From Thiotrichales bacterium (lineage in GTDB: Bacteria; Pseudomonadota; Gammaproteobacteria; Francisellales; CACEW01), in contig CANJUQ010000008.1 in the NCBI GenBank assembly GCA_947478175.1, positions 4,761 through 68,760 of the forward strand: 64,000 nt of DNA, in the 5' to 3' direction. This document shows positions 11,713-40,672 of this stretch, in pieces. A model generated the notes under the pieces. It saw only the letters and a list, made by a program, of their open reading frames with translations, was not told where the DNA came from and did no database searches. The first letter of the stretch is position 1. The number at the start of each line of letters is the position of its first letter. Both the position numbers and the translations under genes were made by a program.

Positions 11713-12135
11713 CTAGAACACCCCCACCGTCTTCTGCGCTACTTGTTTTAATTTTTTATCATTCGTCGCTAATGGAATTTGGTGCCTCATCGCTAGCTCT
11801 AAATAAGCAGCGTCATAACTACTAATTTCATATTCCCGGGCTAGCTCATAAGTCTTTTCAGGAAAAAAATTAGTCAAAGAATCCAATTTCAAAGGCAACT
11901 TTCGCAGCGATTTAATAAATCTTTGACACTCATGGAAATCCATAATATTTCGACGCTCTAAAACTAATAAAACATTCGAAACTTCCAAGGGCCAAATATT
12001 GGGAACAAGCGCTGCTGTTTCTTGGAATTTTTTGAGAACCTGCTTCGCATATTTAGCCCCTGAGGGATTCGTCTCATCGTCATATGCCCAGAGCATGGCG
12101 ACCGAACAGTCCAGAACAAATTGTATTTCACTCAT
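11713..12135 (-). CDS. vapC: PIN-domain toxin VapC
   Basis: MSEIQFVLDCSVAMLW...ISSYDAAYLELA...LATNDKKL carries the PIN acidic residues. Start taken at ATG 12135, preceded by AGGAGAT. Confidence 0.85.
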   Translation of the reverse strand: MSEIQFVLDCSVAMLWAYDDETNPSGAKYAKQVLKKFQETAALVPNIWPLEVSNVLLVLERRNIMDFHECQRFIKSLRKLPLKLDSLTNFFPEKTYELAREYEISSYDAAYLELAMRHQIPLATNDKKLKQVAQKTVGVF

Positions 12136-12145
12136 GTCTGATCTC

Positions 12146-12376
12146 CTATTTCCTGCCCTCGTCAATGATTGCTTTGAGATCTATTTTTTTCGTCGTCTTT
12201 TTAACATTGGTTAATATAGTTTCAATCACTTGGCTCATCTCTTCGTCCTCTCCAATCGGCATTAACTTAGCGACAGGCTTGTCACGCAAAGTAATAACAA
12301 ATTCCTGCCCCTCGCATACCTGGTTTAAAATTTTTGAAAAATGCGTTTTAACTTCAAACGCTCCCACCTTATTCAT
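12146..12376 (-). CDS. Phd/YefM-type antitoxin
   Basis: MNKVGAFEVKTHFSKILNQVCEGQEFVITLRDKPVAKLMP is a typical prevent-host-death N-terminus. A GGAGG RBS lies before ATG 12376. Confidence 0.8.
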   Translation of the reverse strand: MNKVGAFEVKTHFSKILNQVCEGQEFVITLRDKPVAKLMPIGEDEEMSQVIETILTNVKKTTKKIDLKAIIDEGRK

Positions 12377-27214: not shown

Positions 27215-27389
27215 ACCAAGGTGTTCCTAGCGTTATAAAAACACCTGGGTATAATCGCGCCCCGCCAGGTGGGTTAAGCGGGAGTTCTTTCCCATGGAGA
27301 TATCCAAAAATATTTTCATGTTTATCTTGAAAAAAAAGAAACTCCGACTAATTTCCGCCGGGTTCGATTTAACACTAGGGAGTAAATAT

Positions 27390-28049
27390 ATGAGAACACT
27401 TACTGCGTTAGCCGTTGCTGCCGCGTTATCTTTTGGCGTCACTGCCGCTTATGCAAGCCAGAGCGAAGGTGGATTTTCCATCGGCGTGAAGGGTGGTTAT
27501 AACGATATGTCTGTACCAACAGCTAGCCAAACTTATACAGACATCTTCAACGGAGACACGGTCAATGTGTCTGAAAAGAAAGATAAATACATGGCTGATA
27601 TTCATGTCGCTTATCTTTGGCCCGTTGCTGATACTTTCCAATTAGGTGGCCAATTGGGTTATTCCTATTATGGAAAATATAAAACAACTGTAACAGAAGG
27701 CTCTGACTCGACAGAAGCTACTGCCAAATTCTTTGACCCTAATTTACAGTTAGTGGGCCAATGGAATATCCAACAATGGTTCCTCCAAGCACGCGCAGGG
27801 GTTGGTTATTTCAAACCTACAGTCTCTAATGGCTCTGATAACGATGTAACTTATGAGACGAAGAGCACCTGGGACCCTGTAGCAGGCATTTCTGGCGGTT
27901 ACTTCTTCACCGACAACTTCTCAGCTGAAGTTTTCTATGATCACGTCTTTGGCACAAATTATAATTCTGCTTCTAATTTGAACAGCGATACTAGCAACAA
28001 GCCACCGACCATGAACTCCGCTGGTATTGGTATCACTTACAGCTTCTAA
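27390..28049 (+). CDS. outer-membrane beta-barrel protein (small porin/OmpA-like barrel family)
   Basis: Has a signal peptide MRTLTALAVAAALSFGVTAAYA, alternating amphipathic strands and a terminal YSF. Start at ATG 27390, after GGGAG. Confidence 0.75.
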   Translation: MRTLTALAVAAALSFGVTAAYASQSEGGFSIGVKGGYNDMSVPTASQTYTDIFNGDTVNVSEKKDKYMADIHVAYLWPVADTFQLGGQLGYSYYGKYKTTVTEGSDSTEATAKFFDPNLQLVGQWNIQQWFLQARAGVGYFKPTVSNGSDNDVTYETKSTWDPVAGISGGYFFTDNFSAEVFYDHVFGTNYNSASNLNSDTSNKPPTMNSAGIGITYSF

Positions 28050-28258: not shown

Positions 28259-28993
28259 ATGAAATTATCTAATCTTTTAGTTGCAGCCGCTGCACTCTCT
28301 TCTTTATCAGCTTTATCCACCGCTGCTTTCGCAGACGACGTTACTTCCACTAACAATAGCCAAATCTATGTTGGTGCTGAAGGTGGTTTAGCCGATGCTG
28401 GTTTTGACTTAGACAAGTTTTACAAAAGCTATATTCCAAGCGATTTAACTGGAACCGATTTGACCAGCGTTTCCTACAAACGCAAAAGCTACAACCTTTA
28501 TGGCAACTTGCATGTAGGCATGTTGTTCCCAGTCGCCGATGATATTTCTGTTGGCGGTCAATTGGGTTATGACAAATTTGGCAACCAACAAGTTAAATTG
28601 TCTGCCACCAATTATTCCAATGTTTCTGACAGCTCCAAAGAATCAGAAAAAATCTCTGACTTGAATGCTGAATTAGTCGTTCAAGGCGTTTACAACAAAT
28701 TCTTCGGTAACGTCCATGGCGGTATGGGTTATTTCATGATTGATAATTCTGGCGAAGTTAAAAACTTCTCCTCAGGCGTTGTTCCTGCTTCTGCAGCTAA
28801 CACCACTGGCGCACCTCAAAACAAAAACAGCTTGCGTCCAATCGCTGGCGTTGAATTTGGCTACAGCTTTACTGACCACGTTCAAGGGTATGTTGATTAC
28901 AACCATGTGTTTGGAACCAACACACACGGCGACTTCAGCAACAAAGTACCTAACATCAATACCTTGGGTGTTGGCGTTAACTACGTGTTCTAA
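28259..28993 (+). CDS. outer-membrane beta-barrel protein, paralog of 27390-28049
   Basis: Has a signal peptide ending AFA, the shared motifs GGQLGY and HVFGTN, and a terminal YVF. Confidence 0.75.
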   Translation: MKLSNLLVAAAALSSLSALSTAAFADDVTSTNNSQIYVGAEGGLADAGFDLDKFYKSYIPSDLTGTDLTSVSYKRKSYNLYGNLHVGMLFPVADDISVGGQLGYDKFGNQQVKLSATNYSNVSDSSKESEKISDLNAELVVQGVYNKFFGNVHGGMGYFMIDNSGEVKNFSSGVVPASAANTTGAPQNKNSLRPIAGVEFGYSFTDHVQGYVDYNHVFGTNTHGDFSNKVPNINTLGVGVNYVF

Positions 28994-30582: not shown

Positions 30583-31020
30583 ATGATCATCCTAGATACC
30601 AATGTCATCTCTGAACTAATGAAAGAAACTCCGAATCCTTTAGTCATCCAATGGATTAAGACCCAAGAAAAATCCAACATTGCGATCACAACTATCACCA
30701 TTGCCGAAATTACTTACGGTCTTCAAGCACTTCCCTCAGGGTTGCGCCAACGGACTCTTGAAAATGCTTTTCAAAAAACCATTGAGCTTTTGTTCTCAGA
30801 AAGAATGCTAGGTTTTGACCAGAAAGCGGCTGAAATTTATGGACACCTCATGGCTCATAGAAAAAAAATGGGGTCCCCCATGGGCATTTGCGACGGCCAA
30901 ATTGCAGCCATCGCTTTGGCGCATCAAACGGACCTTGCAACACGCAATGTCCGAGATTTTATTGAATGCCACTTAGAAATGATTAACCCGTTCTCAGACT
31001 GCTCAAAAAACTCTGAATAA
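30583..31020 (+). CDS. vapC: PIN-domain toxin VapC/FitB
   Basis: Has MIILDTNVISELMK...DGQIAAIA...LATRNVRDF with the PIN acidic residues. Confidence 0.88.
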   Translation: MIILDTNVISELMKETPNPLVIQWIKTQEKSNIAITTITIAEITYGLQALPSGLRQRTLENAFQKTIELLFSERMLGFDQKAAEIYGHLMAHRKKMGSPMGICDGQIAAIALAHQTDLATRNVRDFIECHLEMINPFSDCSKNSE

Positions 31021-32159: not shown

Positions 32160-32345
32160 CACCTGCCGCCTGCGGGGTTCGATTGTTGAGATGATCTCGA
32201 GCTAATACTTTAAAACCTCGGGGTTCAGCCAAGTTTCAGGAGTGCATGCCAGCTTTAAGCCGGAAGCCCGAAGAAACTTTTAGAATCCCACCTAGTCCTC
32301 CCAGTTCGAGGATACGAAACATAGGCCTGGCGGGCGGCACTTCTT
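32160..32345 (+). ncRNA. ssrS: 6S RNA
   Basis: About 185-nt non-coding stretch immediately upstream of the 5-formyl-THF cyclo-ligase gene, which is the conserved ssrS-ygfA synteny. The 5' UGCCGCCUGC can pair with the 3' GCGGGCGGCA. The internal GAGUGCAUGC...GAAGCC and the 3' GGCGGCAC resemble E. coli 6S RNA. A possible promoter is TTGACT (32129) with TAGCTT (32152). The ends are approximate. Confidence 0.7.
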
Positions 32346-32370: not shown

Positions 32371-32943
32371 TTGAACAAAAACCAGCTTCGTGAAATCTTA
32401 AAAACCAAACGCCAAGCGCTTTCTGATCAAGATTTAAAAAACTCAGCTCAAGCCATCATGAAAATTCTTTTAGAATCTGATTATTGGCAAAAAAAACAAA
32501 ATCAAATTCAAACTATCGCTGTTTATCAAGCTATTCAGGGCGAACTCTCTTTAGAACCCCTGATTAAAAAATTTTGGGAATTTAATAAAAAAATCTATTT
32601 ACCCGTGATTAGCCCTAACTCAAAAATTTTAAAATTCGCACGTTATTTACCTAATACAGCTTTTCAGAAAAATTCTTTTGGCATCCCTGAACCCCTTTCT
32701 CAAGAATTTTTAGCGCCAGAAAATTTAAATTTAGTTTTAACGCCACTATTGGCTTTTGACACTCAAGGCCATCGATTGGGGATGGGTGGCGGTTATTACG
32801 ATGCGACTTTTGCTCAAAAATCATCTCAGACGGATTTAATTGGCTGCGCTTATGAATTTCAGAAAATTAATCAGTTACCTTCAGAACCCTGGGATATCTT
32901 GCTTCAAGCCATTATCACCGAGCATTTTTTCATAGAGCCTTAA
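32371..32943 (+). CDS. ygfA: 5-formyltetrahydrofolate cyclo-ligase
   Basis: Has LGMGGGYYD and PWD motifs. TTG start. Lies downstream of the 6S RNA. Confidence 0.85.
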   Translation: MNKNQLREILKTKRQALSDQDLKNSAQAIMKILLESDYWQKKQNQIQTIAVYQAIQGELSLEPLIKKFWEFNKKIYLPVISPNSKILKFARYLPNTAFQKNSFGIPEPLSQEFLAPENLNLVLTPLLAFDTQGHRLGMGGGYYDATFAQKSSQTDLIGCAYEFQKINQLPSEPWDILLQAIITEHFFIEP

Positions 32944-32993: not shown

Positions 32994-33779
32994 ATGTTTA
33001 ATACGCCCTATGATCTGTACCACTTTATTCACAGACTTAAAAGAGAAGCTGATGACCTAACTAGTCGTCCTGGCCTAGCAGGTGCCACTCTTTTTGAAAA
33101 TTATCAAAAAATATTGGAACTATTTCTATCTTTTGAAACACGTCACTCAGCCTTATTAAAATCCCCCTCTCTTTTTGAGGGAATCAACTTAGGCCGCACG
33201 GCTAAAGATCAAATTGATACAGCCTGGCATGTGTTTTTTGAAAATAAAACAGTCACTAAAGCTAGATTTTTTCGAAAAGATATTACCTATGAATTTAAAA
33301 CGATTGCTCACCCATTCGATCTATTTGCTGCCACACGGCTTTATCTGCTCTTGGAAGGCACTATGGGCTTTGGGACACCCCTTGAAAAAAATAACCTGCT
33401 TAAAGATATCCCAGATCTCCTATTGAATCGGCTAGTCAAATCAGTCCATCACAAACATGATCGCATTGAAAAAGCCCTTACAGAACATGCGTTTTGCAAA
33501 AGCCGCGCTGAAGTGCGTGAATATCTTGCGACGATCCAACAACTCAAAACAGCTTTCTCGAAGGGCGAAGCAGCACCAGCAGGACACGGTTCAATTTTTT
33601 TCGACATCATAGAAATAGATTCCTTCAGCTCACCCGTTGGCTTTTCGCCTGTTTCTTCCACCCCCATGTACACAGCAACAACAGCACTCACAGCCGTCGC
33701 TTCAGTAGATGCAGTGGCAACAGAAGACCCTCCGTTTGTCTGTGGTGGTTCCGGAGGTGGTAGTTCTGGCCTTGGTTAA
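32994..33779 (+). CDS. hypothetical protein (261 aa) with Ser/Thr/Ala/Gly-rich C-terminus
   Basis: Long ATG ORF with no recognisable motif. Convergent with the MATE-like gene. Confidence 0.5.
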   Translation: MFNTPYDLYHFIHRLKREADDLTSRPGLAGATLFENYQKILELFLSFETRHSALLKSPSLFEGINLGRTAKDQIDTAWHVFFENKTVTKARFFRKDITYEFKTIAHPFDLFAATRLYLLLEGTMGFGTPLEKNNLLKDIPDLLLNRLVKSVHHKHDRIEKALTEHAFCKSRAEVREYLATIQQLKTAFSKGEAAPAGHGSIFFDIIEIDSFSSPVGFSPVSSTPMYTATTALTAVASVDAVATEDPPFVCGGSGGGSSGLG

Positions 33780-33789
33780 TTCCAGCTAT

Positions 33790-35913
33790 TTACAATACTG
33801 ATGGGTACACACCTGAAGCTGATACTGGGCTAACTGGTGCTGGTACTGGTGTTGAACTTCTTCTGTCTGGAGGAATGCCTAAGCCTTCTTCGATGTTCGT
33901 TCCATCTTGAAGTTCGAAATACTCATCACCTGATGGCGTGCGGAATGTAGTGCTGCCAGAGAGCACTCCCGATGCTGCACGGTGTTGCTCTTGAGGTACA
34001 ACGCCTACACCGCCGTATTGGCCTCCGTTTCCGAAAGATTGGAGTCTATGCCGACGATTGAAACATGCGGCTATTCTCGTACAAGGCTTAGATTCTTGCG
34101 GAAGATCAGTGCTTTGATAATTAGCTCGGAACCAAAGTGCTAAACACAAACTTCCTGCAACGGCATTTCCAACAATACCCCCTATCGCGACGCCATAAGG
34201 ACTGTGCATTACCTTGACGCCCAGCTCATAAGAAAGAAGGAGTCCGACCAGCCCCATTCCAAACAGGCTGGCGAACATGGGATTAAGGGTTACTTTAGTT
34301 AACCCCTGATACGCACTCGCCGCCCCGTAACGAAGACCATCGAAGACCTGTCCTACAACCACTAAACTCATAATGGGCAGCAACCAATCATGAACAAAAG
34401 GACTGCTCAAGGCTTCAGCGCCTAAAAATAATTGAGCCACTGGGTTAGCAATAAAAGGCGTGATGCCACACCAAGCAACTGCCCAGATCAACGAAAGCAT
34501 CATGCTGATGTTCCCCAGACGATACGCAGCAGAAAAATCTTTAGCCCCTACCATAGTTCCTATTAATTGAACCCCGGCATTCCCAAAACTCTGCGTCACG
34601 GTAAAAACCAAATTACTCACTGTACTCACAGCACTTGCGACTGTGACAGCGTCTTTGTTAATCCAACTATAAAAACCGGTACCAAAAAAAGCAGAAGACC
34701 ATTCAACGCCTAAGCGTCCAATCAAAGGAAGGCCTGTGCATAAAAACTCTTTCATCATGGAACCTGGAGGGAGTTTGTAACTTAAATCTTCCCGCTCCTT
34801 GGAAATTAAAAATTGACGAAGCTCATCAACCTCTGAAGAGGACAACATCAGTGTTTTAAAATCAGCGATGGGGAGTACGTTATTCCCTTCTTGTACGTCA
34901 ACATGAATGCTACTCACTCCCATGTTCACTGGATTCACTGGGCTCTCTGAGTCCACTTCCTGCTCCATTATCTCGGAAAAAATGCTTTTTAGGCTCTTTG
35001 TTTTTAAATCCTGTTGTGATTCCCTCAGAAAGTCCTGCAAGGCCGAAAAATCCCTTGATTCAAATTTTGAAAATGGGAATTTTAAAAATTCACTCCTTAA
35101 TTTACGACTTTTAGCGTCTTCAAGTTTAAATCGAAAAAGACCTGAGAGTTTTATTTCCCCAACATTTAAGTCCTTCCCAGAGACTTTTAAAACGGGTGGG
35201 GTTTTCTTAAATGCAATAAGCAGACTAAAAGCAATCGCGTTAAACCAAATACGAACTGCCCCTGCAATCGCTAACCCTTCAAGGCCTAGCTCAGGGAGGC
35301 CCATTTTGCCCATGCTCAAACCATAACTAAAAAACCACACCAAAGGCACGCTGCTAAGATTAAGCGCCGTCACCCAACCCCTTTGGTTAAACAAATTCAA
35401 ATAAGGCCGAACTACTGCCCCATAAGCAAAAGCAGGCACACTGACAAGGTACCAACGCAAAAATTTTTGAGTCATTGAAGTAATGAGCTTATTTTCATGA
35501 AAAATATTTTCCAGGGCAAATCCTGAAAAATAAAAAGCTGCCACGGTGATGGCAGCAGAAACAAAGGCGTAATAAAGTCCTTGCCGCCCCATACGAAAAA
35601 CGGCCTCTCGGGCCGTTTTCTTATCTTTTTCTGCTTGGGCCGCATGGATGGCCCCTAGCTTCTCGCCCATCAGGCCGTATAAGGCATTCATCGGCGCTGA
35701 CAAAGCAGTCTGCGATAACTTATAAGTCATCACCCACTGATTGGCCGTTAACTCGTCCGGTCCCAAATGAGCCATATAGATCTGAGTTATTATGTCAGTC
35801 GCTGTTGACGCCAACATGCCCGCTACAATAGGCATTGCAGTCTTGATAACTCCACAGGTTTCCCCCCATCTGGAACTTTGTAAAACGGTTTGAGTAACGC
35901 TAGCCCCTGACAT
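33790..35913 (-). CDS. MATE/MOP-superfamily-like polytopic membrane protein with central insertion and C-terminal tail (paralog 1)
   Basis: 12-TM layout. The N-terminal pattern IKTAMPIVAGMLASTATDIITQIYMAHLGPDELTANQ resembles MATE transporters. AGGAGA lies before the ATG. Confidence 0.68.
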   Translation of the reverse strand: MSGASVTQTVLQSSRWGETCGVIKTAMPIVAGMLASTATDIITQIYMAHLGPDELTANQWVMTYKLSQTALSAPMNALYGLMGEKLGAIHAAQAEKDKKTAREAVFRMGRQGLYYAFVSAAITVAAFYFSGFALENIFHENKLITSMTQKFLRWYLVSVPAFAYGAVVRPYLNLFNQRGWVTALNLSSVPLVWFFSYGLSMGKMGLPELGLEGLAIAGAVRIWFNAIAFSLLIAFKKTPPVLKVSGKDLNVGEIKLSGLFRFKLEDAKSRKLRSEFLKFPFSKFESRDFSALQDFLRESQQDLKTKSLKSIFSEIMEQEVDSESPVNPVNMGVSSIHVDVQEGNNVLPIADFKTLMLSSSEVDELRQFLISKEREDLSYKLPPGSMMKEFLCTGLPLIGRLGVEWSSAFFGTGFYSWINKDAVTVASAVSTVSNLVFTVTQSFGNAGVQLIGTMVGAKDFSAAYRLGNISMMLSLIWAVAWCGITPFIANPVAQLFLGAEALSSPFVHDWLLPIMSLVVVGQVFDGLRYGAASAYQGLTKVTLNPMFASLFGMGLVGLLLSYELGVKVMHSPYGVAIGGIVGNAVAGSLCLALWFRANYQSTDLPQESKPCTRIAACFNRRHRLQSFGNGGQYGGVGVVPQEQHRAASGVLSGSTTFRTPSGDEYFELQDGTNIEEGLGIPPDRRSSTPVPAPVSPVSASGVYPSVL

Positions 35914-36043
35914 ACGACTTTTCTCCTGTTATTTTTTAACCCATTAGAAAATACCGCGCAAAGTACTATAAAAACATCAAAGAAAGAACGCTAAAAGATA
36001 ACAACTAAAAAATAATAAATTTAAATCAAGCGTGTTTTATGTT

Positions 36044-36378
36044 TTTATTTTTTCACATACGGGACATAGCCCGGTTGCCAAATTTTGGCATCAATCGCCG
36101 CAATGACTTCTTGTTCAAACATCGGTTTCGTTAAACCTGATCTCACTGCTTCCAAAGCCACATCTATCGCCACTTGGCATGAGACAGACCTAATTTGATC
36201 TAACGGCGGTAGTAAATTTTCTTCTGTGAATAATCCTGGTTGGCCTGAAACACCTAAATAAAACGGTCGGTTTTAAATTTTTAACCACATCGTAAAAATT
36301 AATGACCCCAGGCTGACGCAATGTCCAATTTTGATAAACCGCTTTTTTCTGAGCGAATGGAGCTTGAAAAGACAACAG
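36044..36378 (-). pseudogene. malic enzyme (maeA) 3' fragment with internal deletion and frameshift
   Basis: Nucleotide-level match to 38960-39147 plus 39469-39618 of the intact maeA. Track ORF 36190-36375 reads SFQAPFAQKKAVYQNW..INFYDV, matching maeA SFQAPFAQKKSAYQNW..INFYDV, and then loses frame. Confidence 0.85.
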
Positions 36379-36428
36379 AATATCTTGCAGTGCTCAGGAA
36401 AACCAGAACAACTGGCCTAACAACTAAC

Positions 36429-38198
36429 CTAACAGACACTGTGAACTGTTACAGGGCTAACTGGCACGGGTGTTGAACTGCTTCTGTTTGCAGGAGGAGT
36501 GCTCAAGCCTTCTTCGATGCTCGTTCCATCTTGAAGTTTGAAATAATCCTTACCTGATGGCGTGCGGAATGTAGTGCTGCCAGAGAGCACCCCCGATGCC
36601 TCACGATGTTCTTCTGAAGGTACAACGCCTTCGCCTACACCGCCGTATTGGCCTCCGTTTCCGAAAGGTTGGAGCCTATGCCGACGATTGAAACATGCGG
36701 CTATTTTCGTACAAGGCTTAGATTCTTGCGGAAGATCAGTGCTTTGATAATTAGCTCGGAACCAAATGCCCAAACATAAACTCCCCGCAATAAAATTCCC
36801 CAAGATGGCTCCCGTCGCAACACCCTCAGGACTCTTCATCGCCTTCACACCCAAGCCATAAGAAAGACTCAGCCCAACCAAGCCCATTCCAAATAAACTA
36901 GAAAGCATGGGCTGAATAGTCTTTTTTGTGAGGCCTTGATAAGCACTCGCGGCAGCGTAGCGAAGCCCATCAAAGACTTGTGCCACAACCGTCAAGCTCA
37001 TGATGGATGGCAACCAAGCGAGTACCAAAGGATTATTTACAGCGTCAGCCCCTAAAAATAACTTAGACACTGGATTAGCAATAAAAGGCGTGATAACACA
37101 CCAAAGCGTCGCCCAAATAAGCGGAAGAATAATACTGATATTCCCCAGACGATAAGCTGCTTCAAAATTTTTGGCCCCCACCATGGTTCCCAATATTTGA
37201 ACTCCAGCATTCCCTAAACTCTGTGTCACGGTAAAGATCAAGTTACTGAAAATGCTGACAGCACTCGCCACGGTCAGAGCCTCTGAGCTAATCAAATTAT
37301 AAAAAGCACTTCCAAAAAAAGCAGAGGACCACTCCACCCCCAACCGTACACTTAAAGGCAGCCCTGTTTGTAACAGCTCTTTCATCATGTCCCAGGAGCC
37401 TGCTAATTTAAATTTAAACAGCCCTGAAAGCTTTATTTCTCCGATGTTTAGCTCTTTCCCAGAAACAGTTAAAACCGCTGGTGTTGTTTTACATAAAATA
37501 AGCGCTGTAGAAGCAATCGCGTTAAACCAAATACGACTAATCGCTGCCAACGCAAGTCCTTCAATGCCTAGTTTAGGAAACCCAAACCCACCCAGCCCGA
37601 ACCCATAACCCAAGAGGACCATCAAAGGCACACTGGCATAATTAAAACTTGAGACCCAGCTTCTTTGGTTCAACACGCATAGATAAGGCCTGACCGCCGA
37701 ACCGTAACTAAAGGCCAAAACACTCGGGAGATACCAACGTAAAAATCTTTGAGCCATTCCAGTAATAATGGCGTTTTCATGAAATAGCCTTCCCAACACA
37801 AACCCTGAAAAGTAGAAAGCTGTTGCCACGATCGAGGCAGAAGCTAAGGCGTAATACAGGCCTTGTTGCCCCATAAGAAAAACGGCCTCGCGGGCCGTTT
37901 GTCTATCTTCTTCTGTGGTGGCTGCATGAATGGCCCCCAATTTATTACCTAACAAGCCATATAAGGCGTTCATAGGCGCTGATAGCGCCGTCTGGAATAG
38001 TTTGTAAGTCATGGCCCACTGATTGGCGGTTAATTCATCTTTACCCAATCGCGCCATAAAAATCTGAGTCGCCATGTCAGCCGCTGTGGATGCCAACATG
38101 CTTGCCATAATGGGTCCTGCCGTTTTTATCACCTCACAAACTTCTGTTTTCTGTGCCTTGATTTTCAAGATGGTTTGAGTAAAACAAGTCCCTGACAT
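36429..38198 (-). CDS. MATE/MOP-superfamily-like polytopic membrane protein with C-terminal tail (paralog 2)
   Basis: Collinear with 33790-35913. Start placed at ATG 38198 (MSGTCFTQ), aligned with the paralog 1 start and preceded by AGGAGA. Confidence 0.68.
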   Translation of the reverse strand: MSGTCFTQTILKIKAQKTEVCEVIKTAGPIMASMLASTAADMATQIFMARLGKDELTANQWAMTYKLFQTALSAPMNALYGLLGNKLGAIHAATTEEDRQTAREAVFLMGQQGLYYALASASIVATAFYFSGFVLGRLFHENAIITGMAQRFLRWYLPSVLAFSYGSAVRPYLCVLNQRSWVSSFNYASVPLMVLLGYGFGLGGFGFPKLGIEGLALAAISRIWFNAIASTALILCKTTPAVLTVSGKELNIGEIKLSGLFKFKLAGSWDMMKELLQTGLPLSVRLGVEWSSAFFGSAFYNLISSEALTVASAVSIFSNLIFTVTQSLGNAGVQILGTMVGAKNFEAAYRLGNISIILPLIWATLWCVITPFIANPVSKLFLGADAVNNPLVLAWLPSIMSLTVVAQVFDGLRYAAASAYQGLTKKTIQPMLSSLFGMGLVGLSLSYGLGVKAMKSPEGVATGAILGNFIAGSLCLGIWFRANYQSTDLPQESKPCTKIAACFNRRHRLQPFGNGGQYGGVGEGVVPSEEHREASGVLSGSTTFRTPSGKDYFKLQDGTSIEEGLSTPPANRSSSTPVPVSPVTVHSVC

Positions 38199-38311
38199 AT
38201 GACTTTTCTCCTGTGATTTCTTAGCCAATTAAAAAATACAGCGCAAAGTACTATAAAAATATTAAAGAAAGAACGCTAAAAAATAACAGCTAAAAAAATA
38301 ATAAATTTAAA

Positions 38312-38836
38312 TCAAGCAGGCTCTGTCAGGTCAAATCTCTTACGAATAAAATAAATCAGCCCAGACAAGACCAAAGCAATCGCGACCCCAACACATGATT
38401 CTAGAAATCGCGAAGAGGCATTCACCCAGGGACTGATATAAATACCTCCCACCTGACTCACCGCGAAAATAATGGCCACTGTGATACAGCTCAGACGATA
38501 GAGCGATAGTTTAAAGAACGCACAAATCATGACTGATAAAAGCATGCCAATAAAAAAAGATTCGTCGTGATAGCCCATGAAAGAAAAAACAATCCAAGAA
38601 ATCAAAACGCCTATCAGAGTCCCCAAAACACGGTTTTTTGCATTGTTTAACATTTCTCGATAATTAACATGTCCAATAATCACCGCTGAGATCATGGCCC
38701 AGAGCCCACCAATCAAAGGGCTTCCAGCATGTAAATAATGAGAAATCCAAGCGCCCAATAAAAAACCAATCAAAGCTGTGACACTGGCTTCAAGCGCTGT
38801 GAGCAATTTAAAACGACGAATGATTTTTTTGAGCAT
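38312..38836 (-). CDS. FUSC/aromatic-acid-exporter-like small membrane protein
   Basis: About 174 aa with 5-6 TM helices. Start at ATG 38836 (MLKKIIRR). The upstream part of the track ORF is just the translated family B repeat. Confidence 0.55.
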   Translation of the reverse strand: MLKKIIRRFKLLTALEASVTALIGFLLGAWISHYLHAGSPLIGGLWAMISAVIIGHVNYREMLNNAKNRVLGTLIGVLISWIVFSFMGYHDESFFIGMLLSVMICAFFKLSLYRLSCITVAIIFAVSQVGGIYISPWVNASSRFLESCVGVAIALVLSGLIYFIRKRFDLTEPA

Positions 38837-38850
38837 TTTATTTTTCCTAT

Positions 38851-38917
38851 TTCCCCCCTCTCTGTCCCTACAGGCTAGGGCCTTTCGGGCCTGTCTCTCC
38901 CGCAGGGGGAGAGACGA
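38851..38917 (+). repeat. 67-bp GC-rich element (family B), intergenic copy
   Basis: TTCCCCCCTCTCTGTCCCTA...GTCTCTCCCGCAGGGGGAGAGACGA. The termini are identical to the murG copy and the central ~13 nt differ. Confidence 0.75.
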
Positions 38918-38959
38918 TTCAAGCAATCAGCAGGGCCTAAAATTCGCCCCATTATTCTT

Positions 38960-40672
38960 TTATCTCTGTTTTTTCACATATGGGACATAATTGGGCCACC
39001 AAATTTTGGCATCAATCGCTGCAATGACTTCTTGTTCAGACATCGGTTTCGTTAAACCTGATCTCACTGCTTCCAAAGCAACATCGATAGCCACCTGGCG
39101 TGAGACAGACCGAATTTGATCTAACGGCGGTAGTAGATTTTCTTCTGAATTATTTTTAGCAGGCGATAAAGCTGCAAGCGCTTTCGCCGCGACCATAAAC
39201 ATGCTGTCCGTCACATGCTTGGCTTTGACCGCAATAATCCCCAAACCCATCCCCGGGAAAATATAAGAATTATTGGTCTGATCAATATGCCTAGATTTGC
39301 CATTAAACATCACATCAGGAAAGGGACTTCCCGTTCCCATAATCACACGACCGTCTGTCCACCGACACAAATCCTCAGGTTTTCCTTCACTGCGAGAAGT
39401 GGGATTAGAGAGTGGGAAAATAATGGGCCGTTGGGTCTTAGACGCCATGAGTTTCACGATTTCTTCTGTGAATAATCCTGGTTGGCCTGAGACGCCCAAC
39501 AAGACCGTTGATTTTAAATTTTTCATGACATCGTAAAAATTAATTGTCCCAGGTTTTTGTAAGACCCAATTTTGATAAGCCGATTTTTTTTGAGCAAATG
39601 GGGCCTGAAAAGACAAAAGACCTGACATTTCTTCAGTTAATAACCCATGAGCATCAATAATAAAAAATCGCGCACGAGCCTCAGATTCAGACAAACCTGC
39701 AGCCATCATGGCTTGGGCCATTAAATTACTAATACCGCAACCGGCCGAACCTCCACCGACAACGACAATCAATTGATCTTGAATCTTACTTCCAATGGAT
39801 TGAACCGCGGCCAAAAGCGTCCCTGTTGCCACAGCAGCTGTCCCCTGAATATCGTCATTGAATGTACAAAGTTGATCTCGGTATTTAGCCAAAATAGGGT
39901 TCGCATTTTGTTGAGCGAAATCTTCCCACTGCAATAAAACATGCGGGAATCTTTTTTTAATCGCTTTAACAAATAGGTCCACAAAATCTTCATATTCTTT
40001 GCCGCGGACACGCTCATGACGCCAACCCATATAAAGCGGATCTTTCAATAAATCCTGATTATTGGTCCCCGTATCAAGCAAAATAGGGAGTGTCTTAGCG
40101 GGATGAATTCCGGCACACGCGGTATAAAGCGCAAGTTTTCCAATGGGGATTCCCATTCCTCCCGCCCCTTGATCGCCCAAGCCTAGAATTCTTTCACCAT
40201 CTGAAACGACGATGGCTTCCACCGCATCAAAACGAATATGGCTAAGAATTTCATCCAGATTGTCTTTGCAAACAGGGGTCAAATATAAGCCCCGAGGACG
40301 GCGATAAATATGACTAAAATTTTGGCAGGCCTCACCAACAACTGGCGTATAGACAATCGGCAGCATCTCTTGAATATGGTCAACTAACAGGCTGTAAAAC
40401 AAAGTTTCGTTGGAGTCCTGTAATTCACGCAGATAAATATATTTTTCAATCGGCTTAGATTTGTTTTGGAAAGCTTGATAAGAGCGTTTCTTTTGAGTTT
40501 CTAAATCACTCACACCAAACGCTAACAGGCCATGTAAACCAAAAGCATGACGCTCATCCTCAGGAAAAGCTGAGCCTTTGTTTAAAATTGGATTGCGAAC
40601 CAGATCAAAATCAGATTGATTTACTTCGTAATAGACATGCCCTACAGCGTCTCTTTTTTCCTGATGATGCAT
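38960..40672 (-). CDS. maeA: NAD-dependent malic enzyme
   Basis: 570 aa with VYTPVVGEAC, GLGDQGAGGMGIPIGK, GGSAGCGI and FPLSNPT motifs. Confidence 0.93.
   Translation of the reverse strand: MHHQEKRDAVGHVYYEVNQSDFDLVRNPILNKGSAFPEDERHAFGLHGLLAFGVSDLETQKKRSYQAFQNKSKPIEKYIYLRELQDSNETLFYSLLVDHIQEMLPIVYTPVVGEACQNFSHIYRRPRGLYLTPVCKDNLDEILSHIRFDAVEAIVVSDGERILGLGDQGAGGMGIPIGKLALYTACAGIHPAKTLPILLDTGTNNQDLLKDPLYMGWRHERVRGKEYEDFVDLFVKAIKKRFPHVLLQWEDFAQQNANPILAKYRDQLCTFNDDIQGTAAVATGTLLAAVQSIGSKIQDQLIVVVGGGSAGCGISNLMAQAMMAAGLSESEARARFFIIDAHGLLTEEMSGLLSFQAPFAQKKSAYQNWVLQKPGTINFYDVMKNLKSTVLLGVSGQPGLFTEEIVKLMASKTQRPIIFPLSNPTSRSEGKPEDLCRWTDGRVIMGTGSPFPDVMFNGKSRHIDQTNNSYIFPGMGLGIIAVKAKHVTDSMFMVAAKALAALSPAKNNSEENLLPPLDQIRSVSRQVAIDVALEAVRSGLTKPMSEQEVIAAIDAKIWWPNYVPYVKKQR

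Follow-up and report, generated by a model that had tools for sequence, protein, structure and literature searches.

The window analysed here, a stretch of 64,000 nucleotides (nt) from a Thiotrichales bacterium (contig CANJUQ010000008.1 of assembly GCA_947478175.1), contains two adjacent genes for transporters of the MATE family, which lie head to tail and in direct orientation on the minus strand. The downstream copy, paralog A (P0006; 33790..35913), encodes a protein of 707 residues that forms a singleton cluster in the public protein collection. The upstream copy, paralog B (P0001; 36429..38198), encodes 589 residues. The open reading frame (ORF) listed for B is 36429..38228 on the minus strand, and its start was set to the ATG at 38198, since the ribosome-binding site (RBS, AGGAGAAAAGTC) and the 118 nt upstream of it align with those of A. 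After the last transmembrane (TM) helix both proteins continue into a tail of 111-114 residues, comprising residues 594-707 of A (33793..34134) and 479-589 of B (36432..36764), both on the minus strand. A sequence-only reading of the locus had singled out these tails as an unrecognised module, far better conserved than the transporter core through strong selection or gene conversion. We found the ORFs and the tails of A and B exactly where that reading had placed them.

Both proteins are MATE transporters by sequence and by predicted fold. MatE is the sole Pfam match in either of them, is confined to the core and covers two stretches in each (A, E = 8.8e-16 and 58.4 bits; B, E = 1.6e-16 and 60.9 bits; Pfam gathering score 24.9), which is the two-repeat arrangement of the family (PF01554). 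The AlphaFold2 (AF2) model of B shows a core of 12 helices with a predicted local distance difference test score (pLDDT) of 80-94. In a Foldseek comparison of this model with the PDB, NorM-VC comes first (E = 5.5e-14, TM-score 0.85 normalised to the target), and human MATE1 as well as plant and archaeal MATEs rank next (TM-score 0.80-0.85 to human MATE1 and plant DTX14). A and B nevertheless differ from the rest of the family in several ways: they are only 14-18% identical to solved MATEs, they bear the C-terminal extension of about 110 residues, their subfamily consists of only four known clusters among 5.8e9, and its members carry lineage-specific inserts in cytoplasmic loops. The insert of A (about 108-120 residues; 34765..35124, minus strand) lies in the TM6-TM7 loop, is absent from B and from the two other members of the subfamily (P0008 and P0009), and has no match in Pfam. 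Its GC content is 0.40, versus 0.46 for the core. The AF2 model of A (mean pLDDT 48, from a 4-sequence alignment) is too poor for this insert to be read. P0008 carries another insert of about 90 residues in its TM2-3 loop (L003, about 2100-2400), whose similarity to the insert of A is limited to 39% identity over 31 residues (E = 0.11).

The two paralogs were compared through a global alignment and Nei-Gojobori counts. Their cores (A1-593) are 68.3% identical as proteins and 71.2% identical as DNA, versus 87.5% and 92.8% for the tail from W594 to the EEGL ending at residue 681 (A594-681); over the first 43 tail residues these values rise to 95% and 97.7%. This bears out the observation that the tails are much more alike than the cores at both levels. 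Taken whole, the tail of B is 91.7% identical to that of A over 324 aligned nt, that is, a Jukes-Cantor (JC) distance of 0.088. The Pro/Ser/Val-rich end belongs to the same similar stretch: it is 87% identical when aligned as nucleotides, with three small indels, and appeared diverged only in the protein alignment.

The distribution of synonymous differences reveals the origin of this similarity. Between A and B, synonymous divergence (dS) drops from 1.27 to 0.10 on passing from core to tail, while the ratio of nonsynonymous to synonymous divergence (dN/dS) climbs from 0.17 to 0.65. Of the fourfold-degenerate sites, 78 of 152 differ in the core, but just 1 of the 43 tail sites does so (Fisher P = 2.4e-10). 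Starting at codon 593, the copies are identical over 60 nt, the longest such run; a run of this length was reached in none of 10000 permutations of the variable sites, and with third codon positions alone the run observed at those positions was likewise reached in none of 10000. The best-scoring high-identity tract (33881..34136 in A, minus strand; about 36505-36766 in B) covers 256 nt with 16 mismatches and one in-frame indel of 6 nt, and no permutation out of 2000 attained it. Its onset is abrupt and coincides with codon 593, the end of TM12, so that identity jumps at W594 from about 66% to 60 identical nucleotides. Within the core itself, heterogeneity of synonymous divergence is marginal (chi-square P = 0.046). 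Synonymous differences are not removed by purifying selection acting on a protein, and hence the homogenised synonymous sites cannot be its product, whereas recent shared ancestry of the DNA is able to erase such differences. Our results therefore show that the near-identity of the tails reflects recent shared DNA ancestry via recombination and not selection on the tail. Of the two causes put forward by the sequence-only reading, gene conversion or, more broadly, recombination is supported by the data and strong selection is refuted.

The 515-nt spacer between B and A shows that this shared ancestry extends beyond the coding region. It contains a dead remnant of a malic-enzyme gene (36048..36379, minus strand), after which comes DNA copied from the upstream region of B. 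The remnant derives from the intact malic enzyme gene located further upstream (38960..40672, minus strand; NCBIfam NF010052, 801 bits). The remnant has suffered an internal deletion of about 312 nt plus a frameshift, and consists of two pieces of unequal divergence. Piece 2 matches positions 38969-39147 at 55 of 60 residues and 90.5% of nucleotides (JC 0.10), while piece 1, the older one, is 82% identical to positions 39460-39620 (JC 0.21). The ORF listed at 36190..36375 is simply an in-frame piece of this remnant. Next to it, the upstream region of A, with its promoter and RBS (35914..36031, minus strand), is a copy of positions 38199-38317 upstream of B, to which it is 90.7% identical (JC 0.100). 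Since the spacer is made of the malic-enzyme remnant and the copied upstream region of B, the locus is shown to be a tandem segmental duplication, whose unit starts, at its upstream end, with the 3′ part of the malic-enzyme gene and continues through the promoter and RBS to the end of the MATE gene. Outside the 12-helix core this unit is mostly about 90% identical between copies (piece 2, the promoter region and the tail), piece 1 being at 82%. The outlier is thus the core and not the tail, as the rest of the unit shares the level of the tail; with a dS of about 1.3, the core is much older or more diverged than the remainder. One further difference separates the two units: an ORF for a FUSC_2/ArAE-like membrane protein of 204 residues lies between the malic-enzyme gene and B (38312-38926, minus strand) and is cleanly missing upstream of A, an indel of about 640 nt that arose either by insertion into one of the units or by loss from the other.

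Comparison with other species leads to the opposite ranking of tail and core. Among 5.8e9 protein clusters the subfamily comprises A, B, P0008 and P0009 only, the next matches being generic MATEs with about 24% identity. The source of P0008 is the closest relative, in sample SRR14234030, from which a MutS 75% identical to that of the window was also obtained. Its locus is syntenic, adjoining the genes for 5-formyltetrahydrofolate cyclo-ligase and for NadM-Nudix, and there the gene is single-copy, which makes the duplication lineage-specific. No sister genome with the duplication was found in the GTDB, 5.8e9-cluster and JGI searches: a first GTDB scan gave no relatives and a profile scan only the genome of P0009, the JGI metagenome scan returned only a close relative of P0009, and the plasmid collection gave no match. 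Relative to P0008, the cores of A and B are 51-53% identical and the tails 37%; relative to P0009, these values are 43% and 21%. The tails of A and B, which are 81-88% identical as proteins, are therefore closer to each other than to the tail of P0008 or P0009. In the close ortholog pair formed by P0009 and the ORF of L005, the tail is also the less conserved part (92.7%, with indels, versus 97.9% for the core). The claim that the tail is far better conserved than the core consequently applies between A and B only, and between species it is the worst-conserved part of the protein. What is retained is its length, which is similar in all four known members, while their extreme C-termini are not conserved. 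The tail DNA is saturated at synonymous sites relative to the ortholog (dS about 2.0).

Only one part of the tail is constrained across species. This is the juxtamembrane segment WFRANYQSTDLPQESKPCTRIAACFNR (A594-620; 34054..34134, minus strand), whose roughly 27 residues (RANYxSxxxPxESKPCxxxxACF) are 56% identical to P0008 with a dN/dS of 0.15, versus 30% identity for the distal tail. Likewise, a tblastn search with the tail against the window and the fetched loci recovered only the two MATE genes and, in L003, just the juxtamembrane part (25 residues, E = 6e-8).

Two side observations concern the more distant relative. Between P0009 (L004, 5836-7797) and the L005 ORF (5836-7800), core dN is 0.009 while core dS is only 0.003, and the tail has a dS of 0.12 and several indels; the excess of nonsynonymous change in the core could be due to an assembly error or to selection. 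Moreover, assembly GCA_945879065.1 (CAMCUU01; L004 and L009) is titled 'Francisella tularensis subsp. holarctica', a label that looks wrong given the GC content of 40% in its contigs, a MutS that is 67% identical to that of the window, and best named matches of the window's own MutS among generic Gammaproteobacteria.

We then consider the nature of the tail. Searches with the tail alone gave no match in Pfam (E <= 10), none in the PDB (phmmer, E <= 10) and none in a word-indexed search of 5.8e9 clusters. A phmmer search of 1.84e9 representatives, a library that includes the proteins of this genome, returned the cluster of the query protein itself plus four giant repeat proteins, and no copy of the tail was detectable in proteins of other 50%-identity clusters. 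We treated the four repeat proteins as chance matches. Only one of them, P0002, was checked pairwise, and its score is a sum over near-identical repeats, in which a match of 14 of 37 residues (about 27 bits) recurs; one such match by itself falls far short of significance in a library of this size. A PKD/Ig-like repeat was also rejected as a relative: only about 37 residues match, at 32-38% identity in the repeat units, without covering a whole beta-sandwich domain, and the two-sequence E-value of 7e-4 is not significant against a library of 2.4e11 residues. The literature on MATE tails yielded nothing specific. The statement that the tail contains no known domain is thus confirmed by these searches, none of which brought up a characterised domain or a credible relative. 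The tail is also absent from canonical NorM/DinF proteins, as had been proposed, since the solved MATE chains have 438-486 residues and match the model over its core alone.

NorM-type MATE transporters have both termini in the cytoplasm, and by this established topology the tail is cytoplasmic. Its composition is of low complexity, with Gly, Ser, Pro, Thr, Gln and Asn making up 48% of residues. The structure prediction available for it, that of B, gives a pLDDT of about 30 over residues 497-589, with a weak helix over TKIAACFNRRH, and in A a helix is possible within residues 594-707, around CTRIAACFNRRH. The tail is thus probably a disordered cytoplasmic extension that is specific to the lineage and belongs to a divergent MATE subfamily. 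The first 27 residues or so of the tail, which are basic, contain two Cys, are weakly predicted to be helical and appear to be under purifying selection, would probably lie along the surface of the membrane or pack onto the cytoplasmic side of the transporter. The other 70-85 residues or so would form a disordered Gly/Ser/Pro-rich region with little constraint on sequence, acting at most through composition, length or short motifs; in keeping with this, the distal 70 or so residues evolve nearly neutrally and are predicted to be disordered. Two points weigh against this description: the AF2 alignment held 7 sequences, which makes the low pLDDT of the tail weak evidence of disorder, and every functional statement made here about the tail is drawn from prediction and evolutionary rates. 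The tail may still have the regulatory or partner-binding role suggested previously. The disordered tails of transporters and receptors offer the closest parallel: they have the same low-complexity composition rich in Gly, Ser and Pro, the same low predicted confidence, the same fast turnover at retained length and the same conserved juxtamembrane stretch. The difference is that tails this long are unusual on bacterial MATE proteins.

How a young periphery came to surround an old core can be explained in two main ways. The one that we favour, and consider more likely than not, is concerted evolution after an old duplication. The unit made of the 3′ part of the malic-enzyme gene, the promoter and RBS, and the MATE gene would have been duplicated long ago, and gene conversion would since have repeatedly homogenised its non-core parts and kept them alike. 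The core would have escaped because selection removes conversions that overwrite a functionally diverged core, and because at about 70% identity the core may no longer be able to start recombination. Escape of this kind would explain why the homogenised tracts stop where the membrane core begins and ends (about codon 10 and W594), and requires no unseen donor. A history of several events fits both the marginal heterogeneity of core dS and the older piece of the remnant. An origin of either core from foreign DNA found no support in GC content at third codon positions (GC3), which is 0.44 and 0.45 in the two cores, typical of membrane genes in the window. Several observations speak against concerted evolution, however. 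The pseudogene remnant must have survived for a time equivalent to a dS of about 1.3, with the intact gene, some 2.7 kb distant, renewing it through conversion, and given this survival an old duplication is less parsimonious than a young one. The jump at W594 resembles a single breakpoint, while repeated conversions with variable ends should leave a fuzzier edge. A mosaic history also predicts heterogeneity of dS along the core, which is only marginal.

The survival of the remnant and the sharp breakpoint fit the main competing history, which we regard as possible although clearly less likely. Here the whole unit was duplicated about 10% divergence ago, and a diverged homolog then took the place of one copy's sequence between codon 10 or so and the end of TM12, coming either from DNA taken up from a related species or, by ectopic conversion, from a further paralog; the young age seen in the tail and flanks would in that case be the true age of the duplication. 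Most non-core parts, including a fast-decaying pseudogene remnant, do lie at one level of divergence (JC about 0.09-0.10), the breakpoint at W594 is very sharp, and the loop insert specific to A differs in GC content. Yet neither a donor core nor a third paralog exists among the 5.8e9 protein clusters, GC3 is normal in both cores, and piece 1 of the remnant is twice as diverged as piece 2. Furthermore, tails diverge faster than cores between species, so that the tail of a donor would be a poor anchor for recombination at this breakpoint, and the fact that the breakpoints match the functional limits of the core is more naturally explained by selection. Under both histories the similarity of the tails reflects recency rather than constraint.

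The remaining explanations are all far less probable. It is very unlikely that the cytoplasmic additions of the MATE subfamily private to this uncultured clade, namely the C-terminal tail, the TM6-7 insert of A and the TM2-3 insert of P0008, serve as interaction modules and that the tail was kept identical in A and B for docking to a common partner; were it so, gene conversion would be the means of homogenisation, and selection for a common tail the reason for it. About as unlikely is the extreme form of this idea, in which the tail would direct the transporters to a membrane of the host by acting as a signal for secretion or host targeting. As a type IVB (Dot/Icm-like) translocation signal, or a set of eukaryote-directed motifs, the tail would have some features in its favour: both proteins have a hydrophobic residue within their last three positions (SVL and SVC), although this is too weak to be diagnostic, and the tail is rich in Ser, Thr and Pro. 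Multi-pass transporter effectors also exist, such as LncP, with 6 TM segments, and MavN (PMC12981334). Most known transmembrane effectors have 1-2 TM segments (PMC12981334), however, and 12 strongly hydrophobic helices are an extreme case. A and B further differ from Dot/Icm effectors (PMC12981334) in that IEEG, their sole acidic patch, is placed about 27-32 residues before the C-terminus and not at the usual position of an E-block, that inspection reveals no FxxxLxxxK motif, and that the extreme C-terminus is not conserved among the four family members. No Dot/Icm genes occur among the ORFs scanned in the 64-kb window. Among named taxa, the MutS of the window is closest to generic Gammaproteobacteria (about 55% identity), a single match at 56% being labelled Legionellales bacterium, and hence the taxonomy is that of a gammaproteobacterial clade without established Legionellales affiliation. 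The speculation about secretion is therefore not supported. A hint of host association does come from the closest relative (SRR14234030), in which L006 (1-2291) encodes a protein of 1104 residues with VWA_2 and ubiquitin domains, a eukaryote-like feature, but this protein says nothing about the MATE transporters themselves.

That the tail is a folded or strongly constrained module, kept nearly identical by purifying selection, is extremely improbable. Its similar length in all four members and the dN/dS of 0.15 in the 27 juxtamembrane residues would agree with it. The homogenised sites are nonetheless synonymous, dN/dS between the tails is 0.65, the similarity of the non-coding flanks is just as high, identity of the distal tail is no more than 30% with the closest ortholog and 21% with the following one, pLDDT is about 30, and Pfam, PDB and phmmer searches provide no homologs; for the distal tail, this explanation is already contradicted. 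We assign the same slight weight to a constraint acting on the nucleotides, whether through RNA structure, antisense transcription or a second gene overlapping the tail DNA. An opposite-strand ORF of 61 residues in B (36562..36747) could be such a gene, but A has no equivalent of 60 residues or more. Folding energies are like those of shuffled sequences (z = -0.53 and -0.64 on the two strands), Rfam has no match in the tract, its sole match in the window being an unrelated 6S RNA, and the saturated dS relative to the ortholog also speaks against such a constraint. Least probable of all is an assembly artefact, in the form of a chimeric or collapsed repeat. The contig is of the metagenome-assembled type, and the two MATE proteins are singletons seen on a contig of 77.8 kb. 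Nevertheless, 16 mismatches and several in-frame indels set the tracts apart, both copies have intact reading frames, and the longest identical run, of 60 nt, is below the final k-mers typical of assemblers.

Classical examples of gene conversion in bacteria are the tufA/tufB genes and rRNA operons. Gene conversion and partial concerted evolution between prokaryotic paralogs have been surveyed more broadly (PMC6053082). As in the concerted evolution of tandem paralogs, A and B are adjacent direct copies, closer to each other than to their orthologs over a delimited tract, within which dS collapses behind a sharp boundary. The well-known bacterial cases homogenise a conserved core, whereas here the coding core would have escaped and the promoter, first codons, tail and pseudogene remnant would have been homogenised. 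Partial concerted evolution in a tandem duplication is a known kind of event, and the combination of a homogeneous periphery with an old core is what makes this one unusual. It is a clean and small example of a tandem duplication in which functional core and periphery have different ages, and this age difference implies either selection against converting the diverged transporter core or replacement of that core. It also calls for caution in genome scans, where a segment that is unusually similar between paralogs invites its reading as a strongly selected new domain; in this locus the synonymous sites, the neighbouring pseudogene remnant and the orthologs all show the opposite of strong selection. 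The orphan tail would matter in itself only if it had a partner or a targeting role.

The surrounding window is ordinary chromosomal DNA, with polA, priA, mutS, the heme biosynthesis genes hemC and hemD, ftsW, murG, minCD and the malic enzyme gene. Immediately downstream of A, an orphan ORF of 261 residues (32994-33779, plus strand) is convergent with it and ends 10 nt from its stop codon. This ORF has a C-terminus rich in Ser, Thr, Pro and Gly, lacks a match in Pfam and does not resemble the ORF that lies downstream of P0008. It is preceded by the 5-formyltetrahydrofolate cyclo-ligase gene (32371..32943), directly upstream of which lies the 6S RNA mentioned above (32164-32340, plus strand; Rfam RF00013, 82.5 bits), in the classical ssrS-ygfA arrangement. 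Possible PIN-type (VapC-like) toxin ORFs sit among the housekeeping genes, one with a Pfam PIN match (11713-12165, minus strand) and one judged by its sequence only (30583-31020, plus strand); toxin-antitoxin pairs also flank mutS in relatives (L006 and L009). Finally, the window contains a second pair of tandem paralogs, two orphan ORFs (27294-28049 and 28259-28993, plus strand) that are 35% identical (E = 4e-27) and have no Pfam match. Their N-termini resemble signal peptides and they end in ...YSF and ...YVF, which suggests that they encode outer-membrane beta-barrels.

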